Of a stretch of 64,000 nt of DNA, positions 5,670-41,066 are shown piece by piece (positions within the stretch are counted from its first letter, which is position 1; each line of letters starts with the position of its first letter). The translations under genes were made by a program, and so were the position numbers. A model generated the notes under the pieces. That model was given only the letters and a program-made list of their open reading frames with translations. It searched no databases and was not told where the DNA came from. This stretch comes from Dehalococcoidia bacterium. GTDB lineage: Bacteria > Chloroflexota > Dehalococcoidia > Bin125. The stretch is from positions 31,764-95,763 of the forward strand of contig CBDBNA010000010.1 in NCBI GenBank assembly GCA_965207695.1, given 5' to 3'.

Positions 5670-6844
<1,175 letters not shown>

Positions 6845-8358
6845 GGGCCACCGCCTCGCAGATCTGGGCGAGTTCGCCGGCTTCGATCGAGAGGGGCGGC
6901 ATCAGGATCACGACGTCGCCCAGCGGGCGCAGCAGCACGTCGCGATCGCGCGCGGCCATGCAGACCTGCGCGCCCATCCGCGCCGCCGCCGGGAAGGGCG
7001 TGCGCGACGCCCGGTCGGCCACCAGTTCGATGCCGACCATCAGCCCCTGCTGCCGCACCTCGCCGACCTGCGGGTGGCCGGCGACGCGCTCCGCCAGCAG
7101 CGACTCCAGCTGGCCCGCCCGCTCGCGCGCCCGGCCCAGCACGTCCTCGCTCGCGAACACGTCGAAGTTGGCCAGGGCGGCCGCCGCGCAGATGGGATTC
7201 CCGGCGTAGGTGTGCCCGTGGTAGAAGGTGCGCTGGTTGCCGGGGTCGTAGAAGTTGGCGTAGACGCGCTCCGTCGCGACGGTCGCCGAGAGCGGCAGGT
7301 AGCCGCCGGTGATGCCCTTGCCCAGCGCCATGATGTCGGGCGTGACGCCCTCCAGGTCGCAGGCGAACATCTGGCCGGTGCGCCCGAAGCCGGTCGCGAC
7401 CTCGTCGGCGATCAGCAGCACGTCGAACTCGTCGCAGAGGCGGCGCACGCCGGCCAGGTGGCCCTCGCCGGAGACGATCATCCCGCCCGCGCCCTGCACG
7501 CGCGGCTCGATGATGACCGCCGCGCTCTCATTGGCGTGCCGCTCGAGCAGCGATCGCAGCGAGTCCAGCGATCGCTGCGTGGCCTCGGCGCGCGTCGTGC
7601 CCGGCGCCATGCCGAAGGCGTAGGGGCTGTCGAAGCGCAGCGGCTCGAACAGCAGCGGCGCGTAGGGGTCGCGGAAGCGGCCCGGCCCGCCCAGGCTCAC
7701 GCCGCCGATCGTGTCGCCGTGGTAGGCGTGCTCCAGCGCGATGATGCGGCGGCGCTCCGACTTCCCGGCGTTGGCCCAGAACTGCACCGCCATCTTCAGC
7801 GCCACCTCGACGGCGCTGGCGCCGTTCTCGCTGAAGAAGCTGCGCGTCAGGCCGGGCGGCAGCAGCGACGGCAGCCGCTCCGCCAGCTCGATCGCGCGCG
7901 GATGGCTGACGCCCAGCAGCGTGCTGTGCTGCAGCGTCGCCGCTTGCTCCTGGATCGCGCGCACGATCTCGGGGCGCCCGTGCCCGTGCACGTTGCACCA
8001 CAGCGAGGCCACGCCGTCGATGTAGGAGCGGCCGTCGGTCGCGATCAGCCGGTTGCCCTCGGCCCGCTCGACGACGAGCGCCGGGTCGGCGTCGAAGATC
8101 GCCATCTGCGTGAAGGGGTGCCAGACCGGGGAGTGGCCGGCGGGCGCGGTATCCACGGGTCGCGTCGTCCTTTCCGGCGCGCGGGCGGTCCTCTGGGACG
8201 CCCCGCCGCGCGGTCGAGCGGTCATGCTCCCCTAGTAATACTCGCAAGCGCGGATACTCGCTGCCCCGTCGCGAGCGGCGGCATGGGGTAGCATCCCGCC
8301 AGCGCGTCTCGGGATGGCCGGATGGACCGGCCGCCGCGACCGCGACGGGGAGCGCGCG

Positions 8359-9600
8359 ATGCCCGCAGCCCTCGACGGCGTCACCGTCCTCGACCTCAGC
8401 GAGTGGATCGCCGGGCCCTACGCGAGCAAGCTCTTCGCCGACGCGGGCGCCGACGTGATCAAGGTCGAGCGCCCCGGCGGCGACCCCAGCCGCGGCGTGG
8501 GTCCGTTCGCGGGCGGGACACCCCACCGCGAGAAGAGCGGCACGTTCTTCTACTTCAACACGGGCAAGCGCTCGGTCGTCCTCGACCTCAAGCAGCCGGC
8601 GGCGCGGGACGCCTTCCTGCGCCTCGTCGACCGGGCCGACATCGTCCTGGAGAGCTACCGCCCGGGGGTGCTCGACCGGCTCGGCGTCGGCTGGGAGCGC
8701 ATCCACGCGCGCAAGCCCGAGATCGCGCTGGTCTCGCTGGCCCCCTTCGGGCAGGACAGCCCCTACCGCGACTACAAGCTGACCGACCTGACGCTGTTCG
8801 GCATGTGCGGCGAGATGTACTCGATGGGCGTCGCGGAGGCGGAGCCGATGAAGATGTACGGCACCGCGGCCCTGGTGCAGTGCGGGGCCGCCGCCGCCGC
8901 CGCGGCCATGGGCGCCCTGACGGCCAGCGAGACGCAGGGCCTGGGCCAGCACGTCGACCTCGCCCTGGCCGACCTCCAGTTCAACGGCACCGACCGCCGC
9001 CACGCGGCCCAGATCGGCAACCAGTTCTCCGGGCGCAAGTCACTGCGCGCGTCGGGCGGGGGCGCCTTCCTGATCCTCGGCGGCGTCTACCACTGCGCCG
9101 ACGGCTACGTGCTGTTCGTCAGCGCCAACCAGCACCTGGACCGCGTGCGCGCGATGCTCGGTCACCCGGCCTGGCTCGACGATCCGAAGTGGGACGACCC
9201 CGCCGCCCAGTTCGACCCCGACGTCATCGGCGAATTCGACGCCTACTTCCTGCCCTGGTGCCTGGATCGCACGAAGCGCGAGATCTGGGCGCTGGCCCGT
9301 GAGCACCGCGTGCTGTGCGGGCCGCTGTTCACCGTCGAGGAGCTCTACGCCGACGAGCACTTCCGCGGCCGCGGTCTGTTCACCGCCCTCGACCACCCCG
9401 ACGTCGGACGCGTCGAGGTGCCCGGCCGGGCCGTGCTGATGGGCGCGACGCCCTGGCGGATCAGCCGTCCCGCGCCGCGGCTGGGCCAGCACACGCGCGA
9501 GGTTCTCGGCGAAGCCGGCCTCGACGGCGGCGAGGTCGAGGCGCTGATCGCCTCCGGCGCGGCCGCGCCGTCCCCGACCAACGGAGCGGCGGCGTCGTGA
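8359..9600 (+). CDS. family III CoA-transferase (first of an adjacent pair)
   Basis: Track ORF 8314..9600 trimmed to ATG 8359 (MPAALDGVTVLDLSEWIAGPYASKLFADAGADVIKVE). Confidence 0.85.
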   Translation: MPAALDGVTVLDLSEWIAGPYASKLFADAGADVIKVERPGGDPSRGVGPFAGGTPHREKSGTFFYFNTGKRSVVLDLKQPAARDAFLRLVDRADIVLESYRPGVLDRLGVGWERIHARKPEIALVSLAPFGQDSPYRDYKLTDLTLFGMCGEMYSMGVAEAEPMKMYGTAALVQCGAAAAAAAMGALTASETQGLGQHVDLALADLQFNGTDRRHAAQIGNQFSGRKSLRASGGGAFLILGGVYHCADGYVLFVSANQHLDRVRAMLGHPAWLDDPKWDDPAAQFDPDVIGEFDAYFLPWCLDRTKREIWALAREHRVLCGPLFTVEELYADEHFRGRGLFTALDHPDVGRVEVPGRAVLMGATPWRISRPAPRLGQHTREVLGEAGLDGGEVEALIASGAAAPSPTNGAAAS

Positions 9601-10925
9601 GCGCGCCGCGGCCCCTGGAGGGCGTCCGCGTGCTGGACCTCTGCGTCGTCTGGGCCGGGACCTACGCGACCTGCATCCTGGCCGACCTCGGCGCCGAGGT
9701 GATCAAGCTCGAGAACGTGCACGTCTTCCCGCCCATGACCCGCGGCGGGCGGGCGCGGCCGCCGAAAGCGATGATGGCGGGCCACCTCGCCTGGGGCACG
9801 GGCTACCCCAACAACGAGCCCGGCCCGCGCCCCTGGAACTACTGCCCCACCTTCGTGCAGCTGTATCGCAACAAGAAGAGCGTCACGATCGACCTCACCA
9901 GCGCGCGGGGCAAGGAGCTGCTGCGCCCGCTGATCGAGGGGGCCGACGTCTTCGTCGAGAACAACGCCGTCGGCACGGCCGAGAAGCTGGGGCTGGACTA
10001 CGAGTCGCTCCGCGCGATCCGGCCCGACATCATCATGCTGCGCGCGCCGGGCTACGGCCTGACCGGACCCTATCGCGAGGCGCGCACGCTGGGCGCGCAC
10101 CTGGAGAGCGTGACCGGCCACACGCTGCTGCGCAGCTACCCCGATCGCGACCCCTCCGACACCAGCGCCATCTTCGCCGGCGACCACATGGCGGGGTCGC
10201 AGGGGGCGTTCGCCATCATGGCGGCGCTGCGGCACCGGCGCCGCACCGGCGAGGGCCAGTTGATCGAGCTGGCGCAGGCCGAAGCGGCCGCCCCGATGGT
10301 CGCGCAGGCCTACATGCACCAGGCCTTTCACGGCTCGCCGCCCGCGCCCGTGGGCAACCACTCGATCTACGGCTTCGCGCCGCACAACGTCTATCCCTGC
10401 CGCTCCCCGGGCGACGCGACGGACGGCGGCGACCGCTGGATCGCCATCACCGTCACCAGCGACGACGAGTGGCGCGCCCTGCGGACCGAGATGGGCTCGC
10501 CGCCCTGGGCCGACGCCTCGCTCGACGCGACCGCTGCCCGGCTCGCCCGCCAGGACGAGATCGACGCGGAGATCGCCGCCTGGACCCGCGACCAGGACGA
10601 CTACGACCTCTTCCACCGGCTGCAAGCGGCGGGCGTCCCGGCGGCGCCCATCCTGGAGGCCTCGCGCGTCTTCGACGACCCGCACGTCCAGGCCCGCGAG
10701 CTCAACTCGCCGCAGATGCTGCCCGACGGCCTGGGCCCCTACCTGTTCAACAACCCGCCCTACCGGTTCCCCGCCACGCCGCTGCGCCACGCGCGCCCCC
10801 CCGTCGCGCTGGGGCAGGACAACGAGTACGTCTACACGCAGTTGATCGGCCTCTCCCCGGCCGAGTACCAGGCCATCGTCGCCGCCGGCGACGCGGGAAC
10901 CGAGTTCGACGCGGATATTCCCTGA
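9597..10925 (+). CDS. family III CoA-transferase (second of an adjacent pair)
   Basis: GTG 9597 overlaps the upstream TGA (GTGA). EGVRVLDLCVVWAGTYATCILADLGAEVIKLE. The upstream part of track ORF 9315..10925 overlaps the previous gene. Confidence 0.85.
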   Translation: MSAPRPLEGVRVLDLCVVWAGTYATCILADLGAEVIKLENVHVFPPMTRGGRARPPKAMMAGHLAWGTGYPNNEPGPRPWNYCPTFVQLYRNKKSVTIDLTSARGKELLRPLIEGADVFVENNAVGTAEKLGLDYESLRAIRPDIIMLRAPGYGLTGPYREARTLGAHLESVTGHTLLRSYPDRDPSDTSAIFAGDHMAGSQGAFAIMAALRHRRRTGEGQLIELAQAEAAAPMVAQAYMHQAFHGSPPAPVGNHSIYGFAPHNVYPCRSPGDATDGGDRWIAITVTSDDEWRALRTEMGSPPWADASLDATAARLARQDEIDAEIAAWTRDQDDYDLFHRLQAAGVPAAPILEASRVFDDPHVQARELNSPQMLPDGLGPYLFNNPPYRFPATPLRHARPPVALGQDNEYVYTQLIGLSPAEYQAIVAAGDAGTEFDADIP

Positions 10926-28683: not shown

Positions 28684-31245
28684 ATGACGAAGCTATGGAC
28701 GCGCGCGCTCGTCTCGCTGGCCCTGCTCGGGGCGCTGGCCGCGTTCGCGACCCCCGGGCGGGCGCAATCCCCCGTCGACATCCCCGGCGCGACCGCCGTC
28801 GTCGAGGGGGTCTTTCCCGGCGATGGGCTGGGCCCGCTCGCCAGCGCCGACTTCGACGGCGACGGCGCCGACGACCTCCTGCTCGGCGCGCCCGGCGCGG
28901 GCGGCGGCGTCCTCTACGGGCTGCGCGGCCCGGTCTTCGCCGGCGATACGCCCCTCGGCCTGCGCGATGCGCCCGTGCTCGACCGCGGCGCGGAGGGGCA
29001 GGGCTTCGGCGCCGCGATCGCCGCCGGCGACATCGACGGGGACGGCATCGCCGACGCCCTGATCTGGAGCGCCACGGGCCCGCGCCGGATCCAGGTGCGG
29101 TTCGGCGGCCCCGGCTTCTTCGAGCCGTCCGGCGGCGGCGCCACGGCGCCACCCCACATCGTCCTCACCCCCCCGGAGCCGGTGCGCGCGCTGAGCGTCG
29201 CGGACCTGGACGGCGACGGCCACAACGACCTGATCACCGGCTCGCCCGACGACGCGGACGGCGGCGTCCGCTTCGGCCCCGCGTTCAACGGGATCGCCAT
29301 CCGCTTCGGCCCGTTCACGCCGCACACGCCGGGATCGCCGCTGCTGCGCCCCGCGCGGCGGGTCGAACTGCGCGTCGAGGGGGCGACGCGCGTGGGCCAC
29401 GCCATCCTGGCGGCCGACCTCACCGGCGACGGCGCCCCCGACCTCCTCCTCTCCGCCCTCGACGACGACGACGATCCGGTGCTGTTCGCCGTCGCCGGGC
29501 CGTTCGCGCGCGAGGATCGCACGCTGGACCTCGGCGACGAGGAGGACGTCCGCTTCACCGTCACCGACGTGGATTTCGCTCACGCCATCGCCTTCGGCGA
29601 CGCCGACCTCGACGACGCGCCCGACATCCTGGTGGGCTTCGAGGGCAACCGGCGGGTCTCGATCATCAGCGGCTTCGCGATCCCGCCCGCCGGCCCGACG
29701 CCGCTGCGCCGCATCGACCACGAGCGCCTCACCGGCCCGGCCGAGGTCGGGTTCGGGGCGCAGCTCGCCATCGCCGACCTCGACGGGGACGGGCTGGCCG
29801 ACGTCGTCGCCGGGGCGCCCCAGGGCAGCCCGCGCGGGGCGGTCGCCTTCCTCGCCGGGGCGGACCGCGACCCGGTGATCGGCGCCGTCGTGCCGAGCCA
29901 CGCGCCGCCGGGGTCGACGCTGCGCATCCGCGGGCACGGGCTGGCCGGCGCGATCGTGTTGTTCCGCGACGCGGAGGGCGAGTTCCTGATTCCGACCCGG
30001 CTGAGCTCGCGCCCCGGCGAAGTCCGTCTGCTCGCGCCGCGGCCCGACTCCGACGAGCCGTTCCTCCTGGACGTGATCGTGCGTCGCGACGAGGGCCGGA
30101 CCGAGCGCAAGGCGGCCTTCACGCTGCTGCCGCGCAGCGAGACCGTCGAGCTGCCGCCGGGCTGGAGCCTGCAAGGGTGGACGTCCGACTCGGCCATCGC
30201 CGCCGCGAGTTCCACCGAGGGCCATCCGATCGCGGCCATCTTCGCCTGGGACGCGCCCGCGGGGAGCTACTTCGCGTACGCGCCGGACCGGCCGACTCCG
30301 GCCGGGGAGGACTCCCGCATCCGCCTCGGGCAGGGACTCTGGCTGCTGGTGGACGACCTCACCGGCGCCCGCTGGCTGCGGCCGAGCTTCGCCGCCGCGC
30401 GCGTGCAGGAGCTCGTGGCCGGATGGAACCTGGTGATGTGGAGCGGCCCCAGCGGCACCCCGATCGCCGAGGCGGTGCACCCCATCGCGGAGGCGCTGCG
30501 GGGCCTGTACACCTGGGACGCGGACGCGCAGGACTACCGCACCTACGCCCCGGGCCGGCCGGCGCCGCCCGACGCGCCCCGCACGCTCGACTACGGCGAC
30601 GCGGTCTGGCTCCGGCTCGATGCACCCGCCGCCTGGCCGCAGCCCGCGGTGAGCGCGCCGCCCGTCGCGCGCAGCGTCGCCGAGGCGCGGGCCGCGACGG
30701 TGTTCCTCAAGCAGGGCACGCGCGAGTCGACCGGCTTCCTGATCGGCGAGAACCGCATCATGACGGCCGCGCACGGCGTCCAGAACGACCGCACGGTGCG
30801 CGTGATCTTCCCCGGCGGCGAGGAGCGGACCGCCCTCGTGGTCGCCGCCGACGGCCCGATGGACATCGCCGTGCTGGAGGTCGCGGGCGTCCCCGACGGC
30901 GTCACCCGGCTCGACTGGGAGACGGCCGCCAGCCCCGAGCCGATGACCGACGTCTGGTCCTGGGGCTTCCCGCTGGGCGACGTCTTCGGCGCCGAGACGA
31001 GCGTCAGCGTGGCGGGCGGGCTCGTCGCCGCCCACCAGCGCAACTTCCGCGACTTCCCCGTGCTGCAGACCGACGTCTCGGTCGTGACCGGCAGCAGCGG
31101 CTCCCCGCTCGTCACCGCCGACGGCCGCGTCGTCGGCGTGATCATCTCGTTCATCACGTCGGGCGGCGACGACGTGGAGGGGCTCAACCTCGCCGTCGAC
31201 ATCGCGGCGAACCGCGACCGCATCCGCGCGATGGTGGAGCGCTAG
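28684..31245 (+). CDS. secreted FG-GAP repeat protein with C-terminal trypsin-like serine protease domain
   Basis: Signal peptide MTKLWTRALVSLALLGALAAFATPGRAQ. Six DxDGDGxxD-type FG-GAP repeats. C-terminal S1 triad context TAAHGV / DIAVLEV / GSSGSPLV. Confidence 0.85.
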   Translation: MTKLWTRALVSLALLGALAAFATPGRAQSPVDIPGATAVVEGVFPGDGLGPLASADFDGDGADDLLLGAPGAGGGVLYGLRGPVFAGDTPLGLRDAPVLDRGAEGQGFGAAIAAGDIDGDGIADALIWSATGPRRIQVRFGGPGFFEPSGGGATAPPHIVLTPPEPVRALSVADLDGDGHNDLITGSPDDADGGVRFGPAFNGIAIRFGPFTPHTPGSPLLRPARRVELRVEGATRVGHAILAADLTGDGAPDLLLSALDDDDDPVLFAVAGPFAREDRTLDLGDEEDVRFTVTDVDFAHAIAFGDADLDDAPDILVGFEGNRRVSIISGFAIPPAGPTPLRRIDHERLTGPAEVGFGAQLAIADLDGDGLADVVAGAPQGSPRGAVAFLAGADRDPVIGAVVPSHAPPGSTLRIRGHGLAGAIVLFRDAEGEFLIPTRLSSRPGEVRLLAPRPDSDEPFLLDVIVRRDEGRTERKAAFTLLPRSETVELPPGWSLQGWTSDSAIAAASSTEGHPIAAIFAWDAPAGSYFAYAPDRPTPAGEDSRIRLGQGLWLLVDDLTGARWLRPSFAAARVQELVAGWNLVMWSGPSGTPIAEAVHPIAEALRGLYTWDADAQDYRTYAPGRPAPPDAPRTLDYGDAVWLRLDAPAAWPQPAVSAPPVARSVAEARAATVFLKQGTRESTGFLIGENRIMTAAHGVQNDRTVRVIFPGGEERTALVVAADGPMDIAVLEVAGVPDGVTRLDWETAASPEPMTDVWSWGFPLGDVFGAETSVSVAGGLVAAHQRNFRDFPVLQTDVSVVTGSSGSPLVTADGRVVGVIISFITSGGDDVEGLNLAVDIAANRDRIRAMVER

Positions 31246-31303
31246 CCCCCGGTCGGGGCGGACGGAGCGCCGCCGTCGGCGCGACTCTCACGTTAAGCGA
31301 GTC

Positions 31304-31849
31304 CTAGAGCCGCTCGGCAGTCCGTCGAGTCTCTGCTTCAAAGTCAAGGCCCAGGTAGGGCTGTGAGCGACGGGGTCGACGCTCGGCTGCCCGCATCAGT
31401 TCCCTCACGTCTGCTTCCCACCCTCGTCGGCCCGGGCGCACATGAATGTGGCGGACATTGCCCCACTCGGTCATCGCCACATGGCCGCGGTGCGTAACGA
31501 AAGTCGTCAGGCACCCCGAGCCATAAAGGAGTTCGGCTCTGTCTGGCCAAACGTCCATCGCGATCCGAGCGGCCTCCTGCTCGGCCAAGTGTGAGGCCAC
31601 TCGTTCGATGACCGCCTTCTTGATCGGTGAAAGCTCGTCACTGGCGCCCTGCGAGTTGGCCGAGAGAGACTCGACTGCAGCTTTGAGTGCCGAAAGGCGC
31701 GCGTCCAGAACGTCCGCCTTTGCGTCGATCGCACGATCGGTCTCTGCAATCCCGTCGTCATCAAGCACGACCTTCGGCCGACGCAATCCCAGCGATAGGA
31801 GAGCCGCAGCAGCGACCACGACGGTTACCGCGATCCACAAGACTTCCAC
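31304..31849 (-). CDS. hypothetical membrane-anchored coiled-coil protein (island gene C)
   Basis: GTG 31849 lies 1 nt after the upstream TGA. N-terminal helix VLWIAVTVVVAAAALLSLGL, then a charged helical segment and a ~90-aa tail. No family recognised. Lower GC. Confidence 0.55.
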   Translation of the reverse strand: MEVLWIAVTVVVAAAALLSLGLRRPKVVLDDDGIAETDRAIDAKADVLDARLSALKAAVESLSANSQGASDELSPIKKAVIERVASHLAEQEAARIAMDVWPDRAELLYGSGCLTTFVTHRGHVAMTEWGNVRHIHVRPGRRGWEADVRELMRAAERRPRRSQPYLGLDFEAETRRTAERL

Positions 31850-31850
31850 A

Positions 31851-32114
31851 TCAGGCCTCTTGTCTTGGTGACTCGCTCAGGTTCTTGACCACCTGTTGGA
31901 GTTCGTCGATTTGGTCGAGAAGTCTATCGTACCTTCTGTCGAGCGAACGGCGCTGTTCCTTCAACTCAGCGATCAACGCGAGGTTAGCTCGCTCGGTCGG
32001 GTTTCCCCGGTGGCGCAAGATCCGGTCGAGGATGATCCACGACACGGCGAAGAACCCCAGGACGCCGCCAGCATCGCTGAAGCCGAATCTCCCCGTCTCG
32101 GCTAGAACTTCCAC
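31851..32114 (-). CDS. hypothetical small membrane/coiled-coil protein (island gene B)
   Basis: GTG 32114 shares 1 nt with the upstream TAG. GGVLGFFAVSWIILDRIL helix, then heptad-like ELKEQRRSLDRRYDRLLDQIDELQQVVKNL. No family recognised. Confidence 0.5.
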   Translation of the reverse strand: MEVLAETGRFGFSDAGGVLGFFAVSWIILDRILRHRGNPTERANLALIAELKEQRRSLDRRYDRLLDQIDELQQVVKNLSESPRQEA

Positions 32115-32767
32115 TACTCGATCCAGCGTTCAGAGTTGAAGGCAGCGCGAAGGAGCTCAAGTTCCTCGCGCGCGCGCCCAATGACGTCGGCAATCGCCTG
32201 AAGCTCCTGAGAGTTGAACTCGAGGGTAAGAGAATCAGGGCTCCCATCATCAGTGACATAGTCGATCTGAAGCTGTCCCATCGCGTGCTGGGCAACAACG
32301 GTGTCCGCGCTTGTAATCACAGGTCGAACGTTCCACTGGATGCGCATGTCCATGAACCCGGCGCCGATCGCACTCTTCGCAGTCTCCTCAGCGATCGCGA
32401 CCTCATCTGCCTCCGTCGGACTGAAGAACTCGAGAAGCGCGGCGATTCGAGAATCGAGTGCCTCTGAGTCGACGTTGAGCCGCTCCGCATGCTCGCGAAG
32501 TTCACCCACGACTTCTTCGTCAGTGACTCGCCTGGCCAACCGCCGGAGGAAGAGGAACGATGCGACAGTTGCAGCGTCCGACACTTCGTCAACCGTGACG
32601 CCGGATGATTCCGCGAGGTCTTCCCACTCAGACTCGGGAACACTCCGAAGCTCCGACCGGTTGCGTGCTGTGAATGCCGCGAGAACATCCGGTGGCGCTT
32701 CAAGAAAGCACTTCAGGTCATCTAGGAACGGGCGATTGCTGCCAAGTCGCGGACCAACTAGGGACAT
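32114..32767 (-). CDS. hypothetical acidic soluble protein (island gene A)
   Basis: Track ORF 32114..32821 (GTG) trimmed to ATG 32767, 10 nt after GGGAGA. 217 aa. No family recognised. Lower GC. Confidence 0.55.
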   Translation of the reverse strand: MSLVGPRLGSNRPFLDDLKCFLEAPPDVLAAFTARNRSELRSVPESEWEDLAESSGVTVDEVSDAATVASFLFLRRLARRVTDEEVVGELREHAERLNVDSEALDSRIAALLEFFSPTEADEVAIAEETAKSAIGAGFMDMRIQWNVRPVITSADTVVAQHAMGQLQIDYVTDDGSPDSLTLEFNSQELQAIADVIGRAREELELLRAAFNSERWIE

Positions 32768-32847
32768 CTTCGGAGTCTCCCGTGCGCTGACTGGTGCTCC
32801 TGGATTCCGCCGCGCAACCACAAGCGCGAGACTTGAGGCATGGTATC

Positions 32848-33501
32848 TTACACCAGCCCGGCCAGGGCGCGGCAGATCGACCGCATCAGTTCCACCTCGG
32901 CCGCGGCGATCTCCTCCCGGCCGCCGAAGAAGACCGACGCCCGCAGCAGCGACGCCTCGCCGTCGCCGCCGAACACGGCCGTCGCGACCTCGAGCACCAG
33001 CGTCTTCGGATCCTGCAGCAGCTCCAGGATGGGGTCGCGCAGCAGCCGCATCGCGTTGAGCGCGTCCGCCGCCGCGACGGCCTGCGGCGCGGCGACGTCC
33101 GACTCGTCCATCGTCGCTTGCCAGTGGAAGGCGTGGGCGCGCCCCAGCCCGCCGAATTCGCGCTGCGCGACGACCTTGCCCGGCAGCCCCCAGCCCGCCG
33201 CGATCGACCCCGGCCGCCCCTCGCGCCGCACGAGGAAGTGGAAGCCCACCGCCGCCGAGCGCACGAAGTGGCCGTCGCCGCCGCCCTCCGAGGTGACGCG
33301 CACGAAGTCGGGCGGGCCACCCTCGCCGACCCGCACGAGGCCGCGGTCGGCGACGTGGGCCCGCAGCCCGGCGGCCCGCTCGGGCGCGTCCCCGGCGACG
33401 ACTTCCGCCGCCAGACCGGCCCCGGCCAGCGGCGCGAGCAGCCCCTCGGCCAGCGAGGACCGCGCCGGGGCCGCGCGCTGGAAGAGCCGGCGCAGGATCA
33501 T
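32848..33501 (-). CDS. hypothetical protein downstream of serS
   Basis: ATG 33501, 25 nt after the serS stop. High-GC3 codon usage like its neighbours. 217 aa. No family recognised. Confidence 0.6.
   Translation of the reverse strand: MILRRLFQRAAPARSSLAEGLLAPLAGAGLAAEVVAGDAPERAAGLRAHVADRGLVRVGEGGPPDFVRVTSEGGGDGHFVRSAAVGFHFLVRREGRPGSIAAGWGLPGKVVAQREFGGLGRAHAFHWQATMDESDVAAPQAVAAADALNAMRLLRDPILELLQDPKTLVLEVATAVFGGDGEASLLRASVFFGGREEIAAAEVELMRSICRALAGLV

Positions 33502-35301: not shown

Positions 35302-35305
<4 letters not shown>
34826..35305 (-). CDS. NUDIX hydrolase
   Basis: Nudix box [26 protein letters not shown] 35305 overlaps the upstream stop (ATGA). Confidence 0.85.
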
Positions 35306-36417
<1,112 letters not shown>

Positions 36418-36420
36418 CCC

Positions 36421-36450
36421 TTGACGAACGGATGTGCTAACCGCTATTGT
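36421..36450 (+). promoter_or_regulatory. sigma70-like promoter TTGACG-18 nt-TATTGT
   Basis: Hexamers read directly. The same architecture and downstream box recur at 44808-44836. Confidence 0.5.
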
Positions 36451-36456
36451 CCAGTC

Positions 36457-36665
36457 ATGGCACGCATATCGCGTGTCACAGCAACCCGCCGTCCCGCCCG
36501 CGCGAGCCGACGGGGCCCATGAAAGATCGTGAAAGATCGTGAAAGATCAGGCAAGTTCGTGCAGCTTCCTGCGCCCCAATGCGCCCCCATGCGCCCCCAT
36601 GCACGCCCGTGACCCCACTTGACCGCCCCTGACCTGCCAGGAACCCCAATGACCATGGGGTTTTC
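36457..36665 (+). ncRNA. candidate structured leader or sRNA (copy 1) with C-rich 10-nt periodic body
   Basis: Promoter upstream. Conserved box 36463-36490. Hairpin AACCCCA/TGGGGTT 36642-36662 followed by TTCC. Paralog at 44843-45012. No known RNA family recognised. Confidence 0.35.
36520..36659 (+). repeat. 14 head-to-tail 10-nt units phased on TG(A/C)
   Basis: TGAAAGATCG TGAAAGATCG TGAAAGATCA GGCAAGTTCG TGCAGCTTCC TGCGCCCCAA TGCGCCCCCA TGCGCCCCCA TGCACGCCCG TGACCCCACT TGACCGCCCC TGACCTGCCA GGAACCCCAA TGACCATGGG. Confidence 0.85.
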
Positions 36666-36716
36666 CTCATCGACCGCTCCTCCCGACGCACGGGAGAAAA
36701 AAATCGAGGCCTACAC

Positions 36717-37517
36717 ATGACCACTCTCACCCCCAACCAAACCCCGAATCCCGACCCGAATCCCGAGCCGCAGCCCACGCCCATCGCCGAGCGCGTGTCC
36801 GCCAACCGCTGGCGCGACTCGGCCCGTATCCGGGAGCGCCTCATGAAGGTCGCCGGCCTGCGCCAGCGCGGCCTCAGCCAGACGGCCATCGCCAACCGGC
36901 TCGGCGTCTCCGAAGCCACCGTCTCGCGCGACCTGCGGCGCCTGCATCTCCTCTGGCGTCAGGAGCACGCCCACCTCGCCAACGCCGAGCGCCTGCGCTC
37001 CCTCGCCAGCCTCCGCGAGGCCGAGCGCTTCTGCTGGCGGCAGATCGATTCCCACTATGCGGACGGCGATCGGGTTCCGGAATTGAGCGGCGTCATCAGC
37101 AACCTCACGGGCGTCGCGCGCGAGATCCGCATGCTCCTCAAGCACGCCCGGCCCCCCCAGCCCCACGACTACTGGGGCTACGAGGACCCCATGACCCCGC
37201 TGCGCATGCGCGAAGCGCTGGAGGAACGCTACCAGCCGCCGGACAAGGTCGTCCTCGGTCTGCTGCCCTACGAGGACGACCCGCCCGAGGACGACCCCGA
37301 GCTGGCCGACGACCCCGAACTGGCCGTGTACCGCAAGATCAACACCGGCCTGGCGGATTTGGAACTCGCGGTCGACGCCGACGTCGCTCCCGAGGCATTG
37401 GAGCGCCGCTTGAAGGAGATGAGCAGCCATGTCGCACTCCTGCGCCAGTTGCAGGGCGGCGACGGCGGCGGCGCGAGCCGCAACGGGGTCTCCGTCGGTT
37501 TCGAAGACGATGAGTAG
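36717..37517 (+). CDS. HTH-domain protein (sigma70 region 4 / terminase-small-subunit-like HTH plus acidic tail)
   Basis: ATG 36717 after GAGG. GLSQTAIANRLGVSEATVSRDLRRL helix-turn-helix. High GC3. Acidic DDPPEDDPELADDPEL tail. 266 aa. Confidence 0.7.
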   Translation: MTTLTPNQTPNPDPNPEPQPTPIAERVSANRWRDSARIRERLMKVAGLRQRGLSQTAIANRLGVSEATVSRDLRRLHLLWRQEHAHLANAERLRSLASLREAERFCWRQIDSHYADGDRVPELSGVISNLTGVAREIRMLLKHARPPQPHDYWGYEDPMTPLRMREALEERYQPPDKVVLGLLPYEDDPPEDDPELADDPELAVYRKINTGLADLELAVDADVAPEALERRLKEMSSHVALLRQLQGGDGGGASRNGVSVGFEDDE

Positions 37518-37541: not shown

Positions 37542-39056
37542 CTACGTGCGCCGCCGCAGCAAGGGGAACAGGATCACGTCCCGGATCGACTCCGAGTCGG
37601 TCAGCAGCATGACGAGGCGGTCGATGCCCAGGCCCAGGCCGCCGGTGGGCGGCATGCCGTGCTCCAGCGCGACGAGGAAGTCCTCGTCGACCAGTTCCGC
37701 CTCGTCGTCGCCGGCGCGGGCCAGCGCCAGCTGGGCGTCGAAGCGCTCGCGCTGGTCGACCGGGTCGTTGAGTTCGCTGTAGGCGTTGCCGATCTCCCAG
37801 CCGGCGGCGAAGGCCTCGAAGCGCTCCACCAGCGACGGATCGTCCGGGTGCCGCTTGGCCAGCGGCGAGATCTCGACCGGGTAGTCGAGCAGGAAGGTCG
37901 GCTGGATGAGATGGGGCTGCACGGTCGCCGTGACCAGCGCGTCGAGCAGCTTGCCCCAGTTCGCCTGCTCGGGGACGGCGACGCCCTTTTCCCGCAGCAG
38001 CGCCGTCATCGAGGCCGCGTCGCGGTAGTCGAAGAAGTCGACGCCGGCGTACTCCCGCAGGGCGTCGCGCATCGTCAGCCGCCGCCAGGGCGGCGCGAGG
38101 TCGAGCTGCTCGCCGCGGATGCGCACCGAGGTGGCGCCCAGCACCTCCTGCGCGACCGCCGCCACGAGGTCCTCGACCATCCGCGCGACGTCGTGGTAGT
38201 CGGCGTAGGCCTGGTACGACTCGAGCATCGTGAACTCGGGGTTGTGGCGGGTCGAGACGCCCTCGTTGCGGAAGATGCGGCCCAACTCGTAGACGCGGTC
38301 GAGCCCGCCGACGATGAGGCGCTTGAGGTGCAACTCGAGCGCGATGCGCAGGTAGCGGTCCTCGCCGAGCGCGTTGAGGTGGGTCGCGAAGGGGCGCGCC
38401 GCCGCGCCCCCGGCCTCGGCCTGCAGGACCGGCGTCTCGACCTCCAGGAAGCCGCGCGACTCCATGAAGCGCCGCACCGCCGCGACGATGCGCGACCGCT
38501 GCACCAGCACGGCCCGCGAGTCCTCGTTGGCCTGCAGGTCGAGGTAGCGCTGGCGGTAGCGGGCCTCCACGTCCTGCAGGCCGTGGAACTTCTCGGGCGG
38601 CGGCCGCAGCGCCTTGGTCAGCAGCCGCAGCTCCGCCGTATCGACGGACACTTCGCCCGTGCGCGTGCGCAGCATCGCGCCGGCCGCCTCGACGAAGTCG
38701 CCCAGGTCGAGGGAGGCCAGCAGGGCCCAGCCGTCGCCCAGCTGGTTGCGGCGGCACATGAGCTGCACCGCGCCCGAGCCGTCGCGCAGGTCGAGGAAGG
38801 CCAGCTTGCCCAGCCGGCGCAGGTTCGTGATCCGGCCCGCGACCCGCACCGACGGCGCCTCCGCGTCCGCGCCGGCGGCCTCGAACGCCTCGAAGCGCGA
38901 GCGCGCCTCGGCGATGCGCGCCGGCGGTCCGCCGCCCCGCGCGGGGTAGGGATCGACGCCGGCCGCGCGCAGCGCGTCGGCCTTTTCGAGGCGCTGCCGG
39001 CGCAATTCCAGCAGGCGCTCGCTGGGCTGCCCGGGCTGGGGACGATCGTCAGACAT
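37542..39056 (-). CDS. lysS: lysyl-tRNA synthetase (class II)
   Basis: Last 504 codons of the 1196-aa track ORF. ATG 39056. OB-fold N-domain plus class II motifs (YELGRIFRNEGVSTRHNPEFT, GLGLGIDRLVM). Confidence 0.95.
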   Translation of the reverse strand: MSDDRPQPGQPSERLLELRRQRLEKADALRAAGVDPYPARGGGPPARIAEARSRFEAFEAAGADAEAPSVRVAGRITNLRRLGKLAFLDLRDGSGAVQLMCRRNQLGDGWALLASLDLGDFVEAAGAMLRTRTGEVSVDTAELRLLTKALRPPPEKFHGLQDVEARYRQRYLDLQANEDSRAVLVQRSRIVAAVRRFMESRGFLEVETPVLQAEAGGAAARPFATHLNALGEDRYLRIALELHLKRLIVGGLDRVYELGRIFRNEGVSTRHNPEFTMLESYQAYADYHDVARMVEDLVAAVAQEVLGATSVRIRGEQLDLAPPWRRLTMRDALREYAGVDFFDYRDAASMTALLREKGVAVPEQANWGKLLDALVTATVQPHLIQPTFLLDYPVEISPLAKRHPDDPSLVERFEAFAAGWEIGNAYSELNDPVDQRERFDAQLALARAGDDEAELVDEDFLVALEHGMPPTGGLGLGIDRLVMLLTDSESIRDVILFPLLRRRT

Positions 39057-39169
39057 GGGACGCTGCCATGGACCTACCTTGCTCCCCGGCCGCATCGAGC
39101 ACAAGCCCCGCCGGAACGACGACGGGCGCCCCGCGGCGCCCAGGTGCATCGCCGGGGCGAAGCCCGCCG

Positions 39170-39646
39170 TCAGTCGATCGACTCGATGGTCATCTTGATC
39201 TGGCCGGCGGGGGCCGCGACCTCGACGGTGTCGCCGGCGCGGTGGCCCAGCAGCGCCTGCCCCACGGGCGACTCGTCGCTGACGAAGCCGTGCGCCGGGT
39301 CGACCTCGACCGCGCCCACGATGGTGAAGCGCTGCGACTTGCGCCCCATCTTCACCGAGACGGTCGCGCCCACGTGCACGACGTCGGAGGCGCGCGCGCC
39401 CTCCTCGTCGATCAGCGTCGCGTTGGCCAGGATGTCCTCCAGCGTGCGGATGCGCCCTTCGATGAAGGCCTGCTCGTTCTTGGCGCCCTCGTACTCGCCG
39501 TCGGTCTGGGAGCCGGGCGACTCCTCGAGCGTGTCGTGGATCAGCGCCGCGGCCGAGGGGCGCTTGTTGGTGAGCAGGTCGTCGAGTTCGCGGCGCAGGC
39601 GCTCCATCCCTGCCGCGGTCACCGGCATCGGTTTGCGGGCTGCCAT
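39170..39646 (-). CDS. greA: GreA-family transcript cleavage factor homolog (standard length)
   Basis: 158 aa. N-terminal coiled coil (MERLRRELDDL...GRIRTLE) plus C-terminal FKBP-like domain (SPVGQALLGHRAGD). Confidence 0.85.
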   Translation of the reverse strand: MAARKPMPVTAAGMERLRRELDDLLTNKRPSAAALIHDTLEESPGSQTDGEYEGAKNEQAFIEGRIRTLEDILANATLIDEEGARASDVVHVGATVSVKMGRKSQRFTIVGAVEVDPAHGFVSDESPVGQALLGHRAGDTVEVAAPAGQIKMTIESID

Positions 39647-39857
39647 CTGCGGCTCCTCCCCACGATGCAGCGTTCCCGGCGGCCCGCGCGGGCGCGCGCC
39701 GGCGGGAACGGAGCGGGGCGATCACGCCGCGGCGTCGCCGCGTCGGCGTGACGCTCCGCCTGATCGGCTGTTGAGTGCCAGAATTATACCCGAGGCGCGC
39801 CGCGGCCGGGCGGGGCGGTCCGATCGGCCCGGTATGCCGATCCTGAGGCGCCGTCGT

Positions 39858-39884
39858 TGCATAAGATGGCGCTGCATAAGATGG
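39858..39884 (+). promoter_or_regulatory. two identical 12-nt direct repeats TGCATAAGATGG, 15 nt apart, upstream of htrA-like gene
   Basis: 39858-39869 and 39873-39884 are 12/12 identical. Each carries a TAAGAT -10-like hexamer. AT-rich island in a GC-rich spacer. Confidence 0.4.
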
Positions 39885-39950
39885 GGCGGGCGCCGCGGGC
39901 GTTCGCGGGGTGGGCAACCGGACGCGCGGCCCGGTCGTAGCGAGAACGGC

Positions 39951-41066
39951 ATGCGACTCACCATCTTCGCTTCGCTGTTGGTCGGGCTGCTCGCGGGCGT
40001 CGTCGGGGCGCTGGTCGTCACGCTTGCGGTGGGCGGCGACGACGCGGAGACCGAGCAGGCCGTCGCCGCCCTCGAAGCGCACCTCGACCGCATCGCCGGC
40101 GCCCAGGAGCTGGCCGCCGAGGCCGCCGCGCTGCGCGAGGACGTCCAGGGCCTGCTGAATGCCGTCGCGCCCTCGGTGGTCCTGATCACGACGGAGTACG
40201 AGGATACGGCGGGCTCGCGCGGGGCGATCGGCACCGGCGTCGTGCTCGACGACCGGGGCCACGTCGTCACGAACGCGCACGTCGTGCGCGACGCCAGCCG
40301 GATCGAACTGAGCTTCGCCGACGGCAGCATCCGGCTGGCGGAATTCGTGGGCGGCGACAGCCCCTTCACCGACCTGGCCGTGGTGCGCACCGACCCGGCC
40401 GGCCTCGTGCCGGCGCGGTTCGCCTCCTCGAGCGACCTGCGGATCGGGGATCCGGTGCTCGCCTTCGGCAACGCCCTGGGCAACGACGTCTCGCTCACGC
40501 GCGGCGTCGTCAGCAACCCCCGGGCGCGCTTCATCAACGCGGACAGCGAGCGCCACGACTTCATCCAGACCGACGCGCCCGTGAACCCCGGCAACAGCGG
40601 CGGGCCGCTCCTCGCCGACGACGGCTCCGTGGTGGGCATCGTCACCCAGGTCGTCACGCAGACCCGCGACGGGCAGATGGTGCAGGGGGTCGGCTTCGCG
40701 CTGCCCAGCGACCGCGTCCTGCCGGTGGCCGAGCGGATCATCGCGGAGGGCGGCGACTTCCCCCGCCCCGACTTCGGCGTCGTGCGGCAGCGCTCGTTGG
40801 ATGCGTTCGTCGCCGAGCAGTTCGGCGCGCCCGTGGCGGAGGGGGCTCTCCTGATCGAGCTGCTGCGCTCGAGCGTCTTCGCCGACGCCGGCATCCGTCC
40901 AGGCGACGTAATCCTCAGCCTGAACGGCTTCAGCGTCACGCCGGAGACGCCCTACTTCCACGTCCTGCGGCAACTGGAACCGGGGCAGCCCGTGGACGTT
41001 GTCTATGTCGATCAGGACGGCGACGAGCGCGCGGTCGAGGTCGTGCCGGTGCGGCGGCGGCGCTGA
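39951..41066 (+). CDS. HtrA/DegP-family serine protease with PDZ domain
   Basis: C-terminal 371 codons of track ORF 37659..41066. ATG 39951. TM anchor, triad context VVTNAHVV / DLAVV / GNSGGPL, PDZ (GIRPGDVILSLNG). Confidence 0.9.
   Translation: MRLTIFASLLVGLLAGVVGALVVTLAVGGDDAETEQAVAALEAHLDRIAGAQELAAEAAALREDVQGLLNAVAPSVVLITTEYEDTAGSRGAIGTGVVLDDRGHVVTNAHVVRDASRIELSFADGSIRLAEFVGGDSPFTDLAVVRTDPAGLVPARFASSSDLRIGDPVLAFGNALGNDVSLTRGVVSNPRARFINADSERHDFIQTDAPVNPGNSGGPLLADDGSVVGIVTQVVTQTRDGQMVQGVGFALPSDRVLPVAERIIAEGGDFPRPDFGVVRQRSLDAFVAEQFGAPVAEGALLIELLRSSVFADAGIRPGDVILSLNGFSVTPETPYFHVLRQLEPGQPVDVVYVDQDGDERAVEVVPVRRRR

Follow-up and report, generated by a model that had tools for sequence, protein, structure and literature searches.

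Here we analyze a cassette of three genes, which we call A, B, and C, in a 64,000-nucleotide stretch of the genome of a Dehalococcoidia bacterium (GenBank assembly GCA_965207695.1, contig CBDBNA010000010.1). We refer to the whole of this stretch as the window, and positions are given in its coordinates unless a relative is named. By predicted fold and profile similarity, A is a prokaryotic COMMD-like protein and thus a new member of a recently described family, while B and C are predicted to be small membrane-anchored helical proteins. The cassette, inserted between a conserved gene that we call orf215 and a protease gene, is present in some close relatives and absent from others, and its alleles have recombined. 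Our preferred reading, to which we assign a probability of roughly 55%, is that this is an accessory COMMD-like cassette in which A would form a ring tethered to the membrane by B and C and would serve a strain-specific role.

In eukaryotes, COMMD proteins make up the ring at the core of the Commander complex, and their prokaryotic relatives were recognized only in 2024–2026. Like A, COMMD-like proteins from prokaryotes span approximately 200 to 230 residues, have a helical N-terminal domain and a C-terminal domain of strands plus a long helix (predicted with low confidence in A), occur in single copy at their locus, and have very low identity to the eukaryotic proteins. We modeled A as a single chain with AlphaFold2 (AF2), using five sequences (mean predicted local distance difference test score (pLDDT) 65). 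In the model, approximately residues 1 to 135 form nine helices (pLDDT 70–93), and the C-terminal part contains strands at residues 164 to 171 and 177 to 184 followed by a helix at 186 to 212 (pLDDT 35–53), whereas at the expected first COMM strand just one residue, near 142, is assigned as strand or bridge. When this model was compared with the PDB using Foldseek, the top ten matches were all COMMD or COMMD-like chains (E 8.7e-5 to 1.7e-3, probability 0.99–1.00), including the human CCC/Commander ring (8f2r, 8p0w, and 8esd) and the bacterial COMMD-like octamer 9q6a. The alignments cover the full length of A, and nothing besides COMMD or COMMD-like chains was found in the PDB below E 0.05. The isolated HN domain of COMMD9 (4oe9) gave a weak match (E 0.6), aligning over 108 columns with a template modeling (TM) score of 0.50.

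Profile searches point in the same direction. An exhaustive hidden Markov model search of 1.84 billion representatives, among which the subfamily of A comprises about ten representatives at 50% identity, supplied distant relatives for a 12-sequence profile. Searched against the PDB with hmmsearch, this profile matched 9za1 ("COMM domain-containing protein", E 1.1e-4) and 9q6a (E 3.2e-3) and, weakly, human COMMD4, 8, 10, 2, and 9; COMM-domain proteins made up 13 of the 16 listed matches. The alignments to 9za1, 9q6a, COMMD8, COMMD2, and COMMD9 include the C-terminal region of A. Within the family itself, Pfam COMM_domain was the commonest weak match (4 of the 12 members, best E 0.011), and COMM_HN matched one member weakly. 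A smaller profile of five sequences matched only calmodulin in the PDB, which we judged to be chance. An earlier note on this DNA, made from the sequence alone, had recognized no family in any of the three proteins. For A this is incorrect, although structure or profile methods are required to see the family, which is not visible by eye. The wide alignment of the family lacks any conserved stretch. Pfam, PADLOC, PHROGs, and NCBIfam scans of A, B, and C returned nothing usable.

The two genes that follow are tightly packed behind A. The GTG start codon of B at 32114 overlaps the TAG stop codon of A by its G (TAGTG), and the GTG start codon of C at 31849 lies one nucleotide beyond the TGA stop codon of B. 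Both B and C open with GTGGAAGT (M-E-V-L), and each has one hydrophobic segment near the N terminus, spanning residues 15 to 33 in B (Kyte–Doolittle 19-residue mean 1.66) and residues 1 to 24 in C (2.47). Basic residues come straight after both anchors (RILRHRG in B and RRPK in C). Only weak, coiled-coil-type Pfam matches were found for B, and C is predicted to have two long helices followed by a small strand-rich C-terminal part (AF2 secondary structure only, from a poor model with pLDDT 46). A, for its part, is acidic, with 42 Asp plus Glu residues versus 20 Lys plus Arg. Much of what the earlier note had described at this locus is thus borne out: the positions of the three packed minus-strand open reading frames (ORFs) are confirmed exactly, the stop/start overlap and the one-nucleotide spacing support a compact, translationally coupled unit, the charge count agrees with an acidic A, B and C do open alike, and each of them has a single hydrophobic helix with a charged helical stretch behind it.

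The same arrangement recurs in distant bacteria. At locus L017, a 216-residue homolog of A (P0017, 25% identical to A) is followed, after gaps of 2 and 4 nucleotides, by a 65-residue protein with one hydrophobic helix and a 176-residue protein that combines an anchor at its N terminus with a charged helix. The architecture is as at L017 for L020, L021, and L022, where P0018 (MBS3957278.1, labeled Clostridiales bacterium; 21% identical to A) belongs to a set of 227, 72, and 169 residues. Overall, a B-like ORF follows the distant A homologs in L016, L017, L018, L020, L021, and L022, and a C-like ORF (169–181 residues, N-terminal anchor) follows B in L017, L020, and L022; at L016 and L018 (P0016 and P0017) the contig ends after the B-like ORF. 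What is conserved across these distant loci is order, size, coupling, and architecture only. One sequence-level link was found, a weak hhalign match of B of L016 to the B family of the window (E 3e-4, probability 40%). The trio is AT-richer than its neighbors in L017 and L020 as well. On the 118-kb contig of L022, the trio (6268–7712) is followed by genes for a DUF6338 membrane protein and an IS110-family transposase (8058–9815), the transposase lying 1 kb downstream of the trio.

Closer homologs are extremely rare: a collection of 5.8 billion proteins yielded six A clusters, four C clusters, and three B clusters (the counts for A and B include the window's own sequence), all of them derived from metagenome assemblies. 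The carriers belong to a group of Chloroflexota/Dehalococcoidia with high GC, and the names of their samples suggest that the metagenomes came from sponges. In all of them the gene order is NUDIX, serS, orf215, A, B, and C, followed by the convergent protease gene (FG-GAP/trypsin) and by genes for an MFS transporter and an FGE-sulfatase. At least eight different samples contributed contigs with the cassette at the identical site, and because these independent samples give the same junctions, we reject an assembly chimera or artifact. The B ORF is intact in 10 of 10 carrier loci examined, the C ORF in all five from which the full gene was extracted, and the A ORF wherever it was extracted, except in the low-coverage contig L005. 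There (5766–8471, 4x coverage), serS and A are broken into several ORFs, which are probably sequencing or assembly frameshifts and not real pseudogenes. Pairwise ratios of nonsynonymous to synonymous divergence (dN/dS) were 0.13 to 0.47 for A, 0.12 to 0.36 for B (leaving out the nearly identical pair of the window and L002, 0.94), and 0.26 to 0.49 for C. We conclude that A, B, and C all encode proteins under purifying selection.

The base composition of the cassette sets it apart from its surroundings. Its GC content is 58 to 63%, compared with 72 to 80% in the adjoining genes, and it is the deepest GC trough of the window; the earlier note had called the block lower in GC from hand counts, and the contrast proves larger than those counts indicated. 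GC at third codon positions (GC3) is 0.65 in A, 0.73 in B, and 0.68 in C, versus 0.97 in the protease gene, 0.96 in orf215, 0.99 in serS, and 0.92 in the NUDIX gene. The other credible ORFs of at least 100 residues in the window have GC3 of at least 0.85, with the sole exception of a cytochrome c gene (0.78). In every carrier, the cassette has GC3 of 0.62 to 0.74 against 0.92 to 0.99 in the flanks, and this value has been kept near 0.65 to 0.7 even though the carriers are separated by approximately 0.3 to 0.5 synonymous substitutions per site (dS).

Using orf215, which has no Pfam family and is kept in all relatives whether or not the cassette is present, we scanned the GTDB species representatives and obtained five Chloroflexota/Dehalococcoidia metagenome-assembled genomes (L010–L014). 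The trio is absent from all five, and in each of them orf215 and the protease gene are 0 to 40 bp apart. These empty sites are not assembly gaps because one complete chromosome and one 2.65-Mb contig are among them. In L010, SerS and orf215 are 99% and 97% identical to those of the window. Both sub-clades contain carriers as well as empty sites. The cassette is therefore an accessory insertion/deletion polymorphism and dispensable. This bears on the idea that it is a toxin–antitoxin-like addiction module in which B and/or C would be toxic and the acidic A would neutralize them. A compact coupled operon, an acidic soluble protein beside small hydrophobic proteins, and a patchy distribution are all what such a module would show; however, there are three genes rather than two, A is predicted to fold like a scaffold that forms rings and has no DNA-binding antitoxin domain, no toxin–antitoxin family in Pfam, NCBIfam, or PADLOC was matched, and the clean loss from five lineages argues against strong addiction. 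We regard an addiction module as improbable.

The cassette measures approximately 1.6 kb and interrupts orf215 within its final codons. In the clade-2 carrier L006, the 9-nucleotide string GCCCTGGCG is present at both junctions, and the right junction equals the sequence of the empty site in L013. The right junction of the window resembles, in a comparison by eye, the tail of orf215 in the empty-site genome L011. The direct repeat is clear in L006 and degenerate elsewhere, and it fits target duplication and microhomology alike. The insertion site lacks any integrase or transposase gene, and neither a tRNA nor another known RNA was found there. A 13-nucleotide inverted repeat near both ends of the L002 cassette was set aside as chance: it overlaps the ribosome-binding region, and the same scan did not recover it in the window or L006. 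At the empty site of L010 (8430–8445), orf215 and the convergent protease gene both end on the palindromic CTAG, so that their opposite-strand stop codons overlap. The same few codons of orf215 are occupied in two clades by a 1.6-kb unit without mobility genes, and flank-mediated homologous recombination would be the simplest idea for how the cassette came to be placed there.

Another reading is that of a prophage or integrative-element remnant. The 3' end of orf215 would then be an attachment site at which a cassette for lysis or superinfection exclusion, or a moron, was left behind. An insertion into a gene 3' end that displaces a copy of this end and is bordered by a short direct repeat is consistent with this, as are the low GC and the sizes of B and C, which resemble those of holins or exclusion proteins. 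Against it, no integrase, transposase, or other phage gene lies in or beside the cassette, and there is no tRNA nearby. Searches of viral and plasmid collections were likewise negative: no PHROGs match of A, B, or C fell below E 0.1; tblastn against 50,697 INPHARED phage records and the PLSDB plasmids found nothing for A or three distant homologs; IMG/VR and JGI contigs contained no relative of A; and a structural search of BFVD gave no match below E 0.1. A decaying remnant is moreover unlikely because the trio stays intact under purifying selection in every carrier, across approximately 0.3 to 0.5 synonymous substitutions per site. Taken together, we consider a remnant of this kind improbable.

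Comparison of carriers demonstrated that the cassette of the window is a recombinant of two deeply diverged allele classes. This conclusion follows because its identity to L007 and to L002 switches reciprocally along the cassette. Relative to L007, the orf215 and protease flanks are 91 to 100% identical, and the cassette is 88 to 96% identical over 32850–32300 and 80 to 93% identical over 31660–31460 but only 62 to 81% identical over 32250–31700, a segment that covers the last ~45 codons of A, B in full, and the opening ~50 codons of C. Relative to L002, the flanks are 88 to 99% identical (77% over the left junction), and the cassette is 66 to 76% identical over 32850–32300 and 71 to 78% over 31612–31460 but 89 to 100% identical over 32200–31660. 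The breakpoints lie near 32250 and 31650. Between the window and L002, dS is 0.06 for serS, 1.15 for A, and 0.016 for B, although the extreme GC3 of the flanks constrains synonymous sites and makes the absolute values not strictly comparable; the abrupt identity switches inside the cassette are independent of that constraint. Finally, L007 and the clade-2 carrier L006 are 88 to 93% identical in the middle of A and 69 to 85% identical in the flanks, and because the identity in A exceeds that of the flanks, the sequences indicate exchange between clades.

The earlier note had read the block as horizontally acquired and accessory. The foreign GC3, the five clean empty sites, and the mosaic alleles uphold this: the trio is syntenic where present, it is absent from other relatives, and its composition is never host-like, rather than being syntenic and host-like throughout. 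Small strain-variable islets exchanged through flanking homologous recombination are a general concept, and the cassette resembles them in its fixed site between conserved genes, its presence or absence in close relatives, its divergent alleles with sharp breakpoints, its low GC, and its lack of mobility genes of its own. It differs from them in content, which is not surface-polysaccharide, restriction, or known defense genes. In our view, the accessory, exchanged, deeply diverse, and non-ameliorated behavior of the cassette favors a strain-specific or conflict-type role.

The earlier note had suggested abortive infection, a toxin–antitoxin-like system, or phage lysis or superinfection exclusion, and we found no direct support for these candidates. 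One specific form of a conflict-type role is anti-phage defense or abortive infection, with A as a cytoplasmic sensor or scaffold and B and C as effectors that would damage the membrane upon infection. Small membrane proteins are common defense effectors. Presence/absence variation, GC below that of the host in three unrelated hosts, and deep allelic divergence with recombination, as seen at loci under frequency-dependent selection, would all be expected of a defense locus, and a second variable spot (Peptidase_M78/HTH, EMARD_N/DUF7380) lies a few kilobases away in relatives. However, A, B, and C had no match in PADLOC-DB v2 at E ≤ 1, the trio lacks nuclease, NTPase, protease, and other sensor or enzyme domains, and the cassette has no recognized defense genes around it in the window. 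With dN/dS below 0.5, there is also no gene-level sign of positive selection, and in the library searched, no paper joined "COMMD" and "phage defense". We therefore consider defense to be unlikely.

We propose the following mechanism for the preferred reading, in which A, B, and C form a membrane-tethered ring. By analogy to solved bacterial and archaeal relatives, cytoplasmic A would use its COMM domain to build a homo-octameric or homo-decameric ring. Each of B and C would cross the membrane once, with the helical or coiled-coil part toward the cytoplasm (N-out/C-in), a topology suggested by the positive-inside rule because basic residues directly follow both anchors. The proposal also draws on the long helices predicted in C and on the heptad-like sequence of B. 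The overlapping stop and start codons would cause A, B, and C to be made in fixed proportion, and B and C would tether or dock the ring at the inner face of the membrane, so that the working unit would be a membrane-bound A–B–C ring complex. Through recombination, strains and species gain, lose, and reshuffle the cassette. Because it is dispensable and behaves in this way, we expect its role to be strain specific, such as a conflict, envelope, or niche function, and not housekeeping.

Several observations weigh against this proposal. In the model of A, the COMM part is of low confidence and has two clear strands instead of three, although low pLDDT is expected for the C terminus in a monomer model because the COMM domain folds as an obligate dimer. 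The Foldseek TM-scores of A are just 0.27 to 0.40, which fits a different domain orientation combined with a poorly modeled COMM part. Neither A alone nor its close family alone matches Pfam COMM or PDB COMMD entries. The hydrophobic segment of B is barely at the threshold for a membrane helix and includes an Asp. In the distant loci, B and C did not give significant hhalign matches to B and C of the window, apart from B of L016 as described above, and the distant homolog P0023 is followed by a single 133-residue gene instead of a B/C pair. Lastly, allele shuffling has split the N-terminal three quarters of A from B, which speaks against a tight mutual adaptation between B and this part of A. 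We speculate that the block inherited together (the final ~45 codons of A, B as a whole, and ~65 codons at the start of C) may hold mutually adapted surfaces.

Liu et al. (Nat Commun 2026, PMC13392464) and Köstlbacher et al. (2026, PMC12962969) described the family to which we assign A, the latter reporting Asgard homologs. Solved prokaryotic COMMD-like proteins form homo-octameric or homo-decameric rings, and 9q6a is such a protein from a Flavobacteriaceae bacterium (PMC13392464). Both accounts state the function of the prokaryotic proteins to be unknown, and neither could predict an interacting partner from the gene neighborhoods examined (PMC13392464, PMC12962969). No Chloroflexota example and no membrane-protein partner appear in the main text of either paper, and the published contexts are T6SS-like (type VI secretion system-like) or DNA-related genes, whereas here the gene lies in a coupled three-gene mobile cassette. 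These contexts provide one argument for a lineage-specific, non-essential envelope or cell-biology function, for example in membrane organization or as a secretion accessory, which would parallel the secretion-system neighborhoods reported for COMMD-like proteins of Myxococcota and Chlamydia: in Myxococcota, published COMMD-like genes have T6SS-like genes in their vicinity, and the related CT584 is a chlamydial protein (PMC13392464). Purifying selection and the position of the trio downstream of serS and orf215 on the same strand agree with such a function. However, we found no secretion-system genes near the trio in the window or its relatives, and foreign composition with inter-clade exchange would be unusual for lineage-specific cell-biology genes. 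We find this explanation rather unlikely.

The eukaryotic CCC sub-complex, in which a ring of COMMD1–10 is joined by CCDC22 and CCDC93, offers another comparison. Like the trio, it combines a COMMD-type protein with two helical or coiled-coil proteins, presumably at a membrane. In contrast to CCDC22 and CCDC93, B and C are tiny (87 and 181 residues), membrane anchored, and without detectable similarity to either, and a ring of A would be homomeric. Published searches found no prokaryotic homologs of CCDC22 or CCDC93. The resemblance lies in logic alone and should not be taken as evidence of descent. A bolder proposition would be that prokaryotic COMMD-like rings work as complexes tethered to the membrane, that two small coiled-coil membrane proteins are dedicated to them, that a horizontally mobile module carries the set, and that they are a counterpart in logic to, and conceivably a forerunner of, the COMMD–CCDC22–CCDC93 core of Commander; we hold this to be a long shot.

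The features of the locus are collected in Table 1. The ATG of A at 32767 has a GGGAG 9 nucleotides upstream; an alternative GTG at 32821 lacks a Shine–Dalgarno sequence. A sigma-70 consensus promoter was not found at the cassette, and the leader may be the site of the cassette's own promoter. The stem-loop across the stop codon of C has nine pairs, each kept in at least five of six carriers, with a single compensatory pair. It has no T-run and was not called in a terminator scan, and it may act as a terminator or RNA stabilizer. No tRNA, Rfam family, or consensus terminator was found at the cassette.

Table 1. Features of the cassette and its surroundings, in window coordinates.
Feature	Position	Strand	Description and basis
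Gene A	32114..32767	minus	217 aa, acidic cytoplasmic protein, predicted COMMD-like
A, helical N-terminal (HN) domain	32363..32767	minus	residues ~1–135; AF2
A, COMM-type C-terminal domain	32117..32362	minus	residues ~136–217; AF2, profile alignments
Gene B	31851..32114	minus	87 aa, one hydrophobic helix, basic patch, heptad-like charged helix
Gene C	31304..31849	minus	181 aa, predicted N-terminal membrane anchor, two long helices, small strand-rich C terminus
Leader, orf215 stop to A	32768..32847	minus	conserved CTTG(C/T)G motif and GGGAG ribosome-binding site; alignment of six carriers
Conserved stem-loop across C stop codon	31283..31311	minus	RNAalifold, six carriers
Right junction	31246..31282		degenerate copy of original orf215 3' tail, displaced by the insertion
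orf215	32848..33501	minus	217 aa, directly downstream of serS
Protease gene	28684..31245	plus	853 aa, large secreted-type serine protease, FG-GAP repeats and trypsin
Second protease gene	37659..41066	plus	1135 aa, large secreted-type serine protease, trypsin and PDZ
Glu-Pro repeat protein	35302..36417	minus	371 aa, hydrophobic N terminus, then ~50 Glu-Pro dipeptide repeats
Second variable spot	36350..37517		just upstream of NUDIX-serS, GC dip 0.64–0.68
HTH protein in variable spot	36717..37517		

Some neighbors of the cassette deserve a brief description. The two serine proteases are very large and lie less than 10 kb apart. The sole Pfam match of the Glu-Pro repeat protein is a low-complexity match to trypanosome PARP. 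The second variable spot, which in the window holds a helix-turn-helix (HTH) protein, contains Peptidase_M78/HTH in L001 (4242–5411), EMARD_N and DUF7380 in L004 (2293–3910), and HTH_38 in L005 (4426–4806).

Relative to the published accounts of the family, what appears to be new here is the coupled operon with two putative membrane proteins, its recurrence in distant phyla, and its behavior as a mobile islet. The trio is a first clue to the working partners of bacterial COMMD-like proteins, with B and C as candidates and the membrane as the candidate site. If the bolder proposition above is correct, the trio would represent the first partner set to be defined for bacterial COMMD-like proteins and would provide a first experimental handle on their function. 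Independently, the locus is a clean natural example, in uncultivated Dehalococcoidia, of a small islet without mobility genes that is gained, lost, and recombined across species boundaries with no drift toward the extreme GC of its host.

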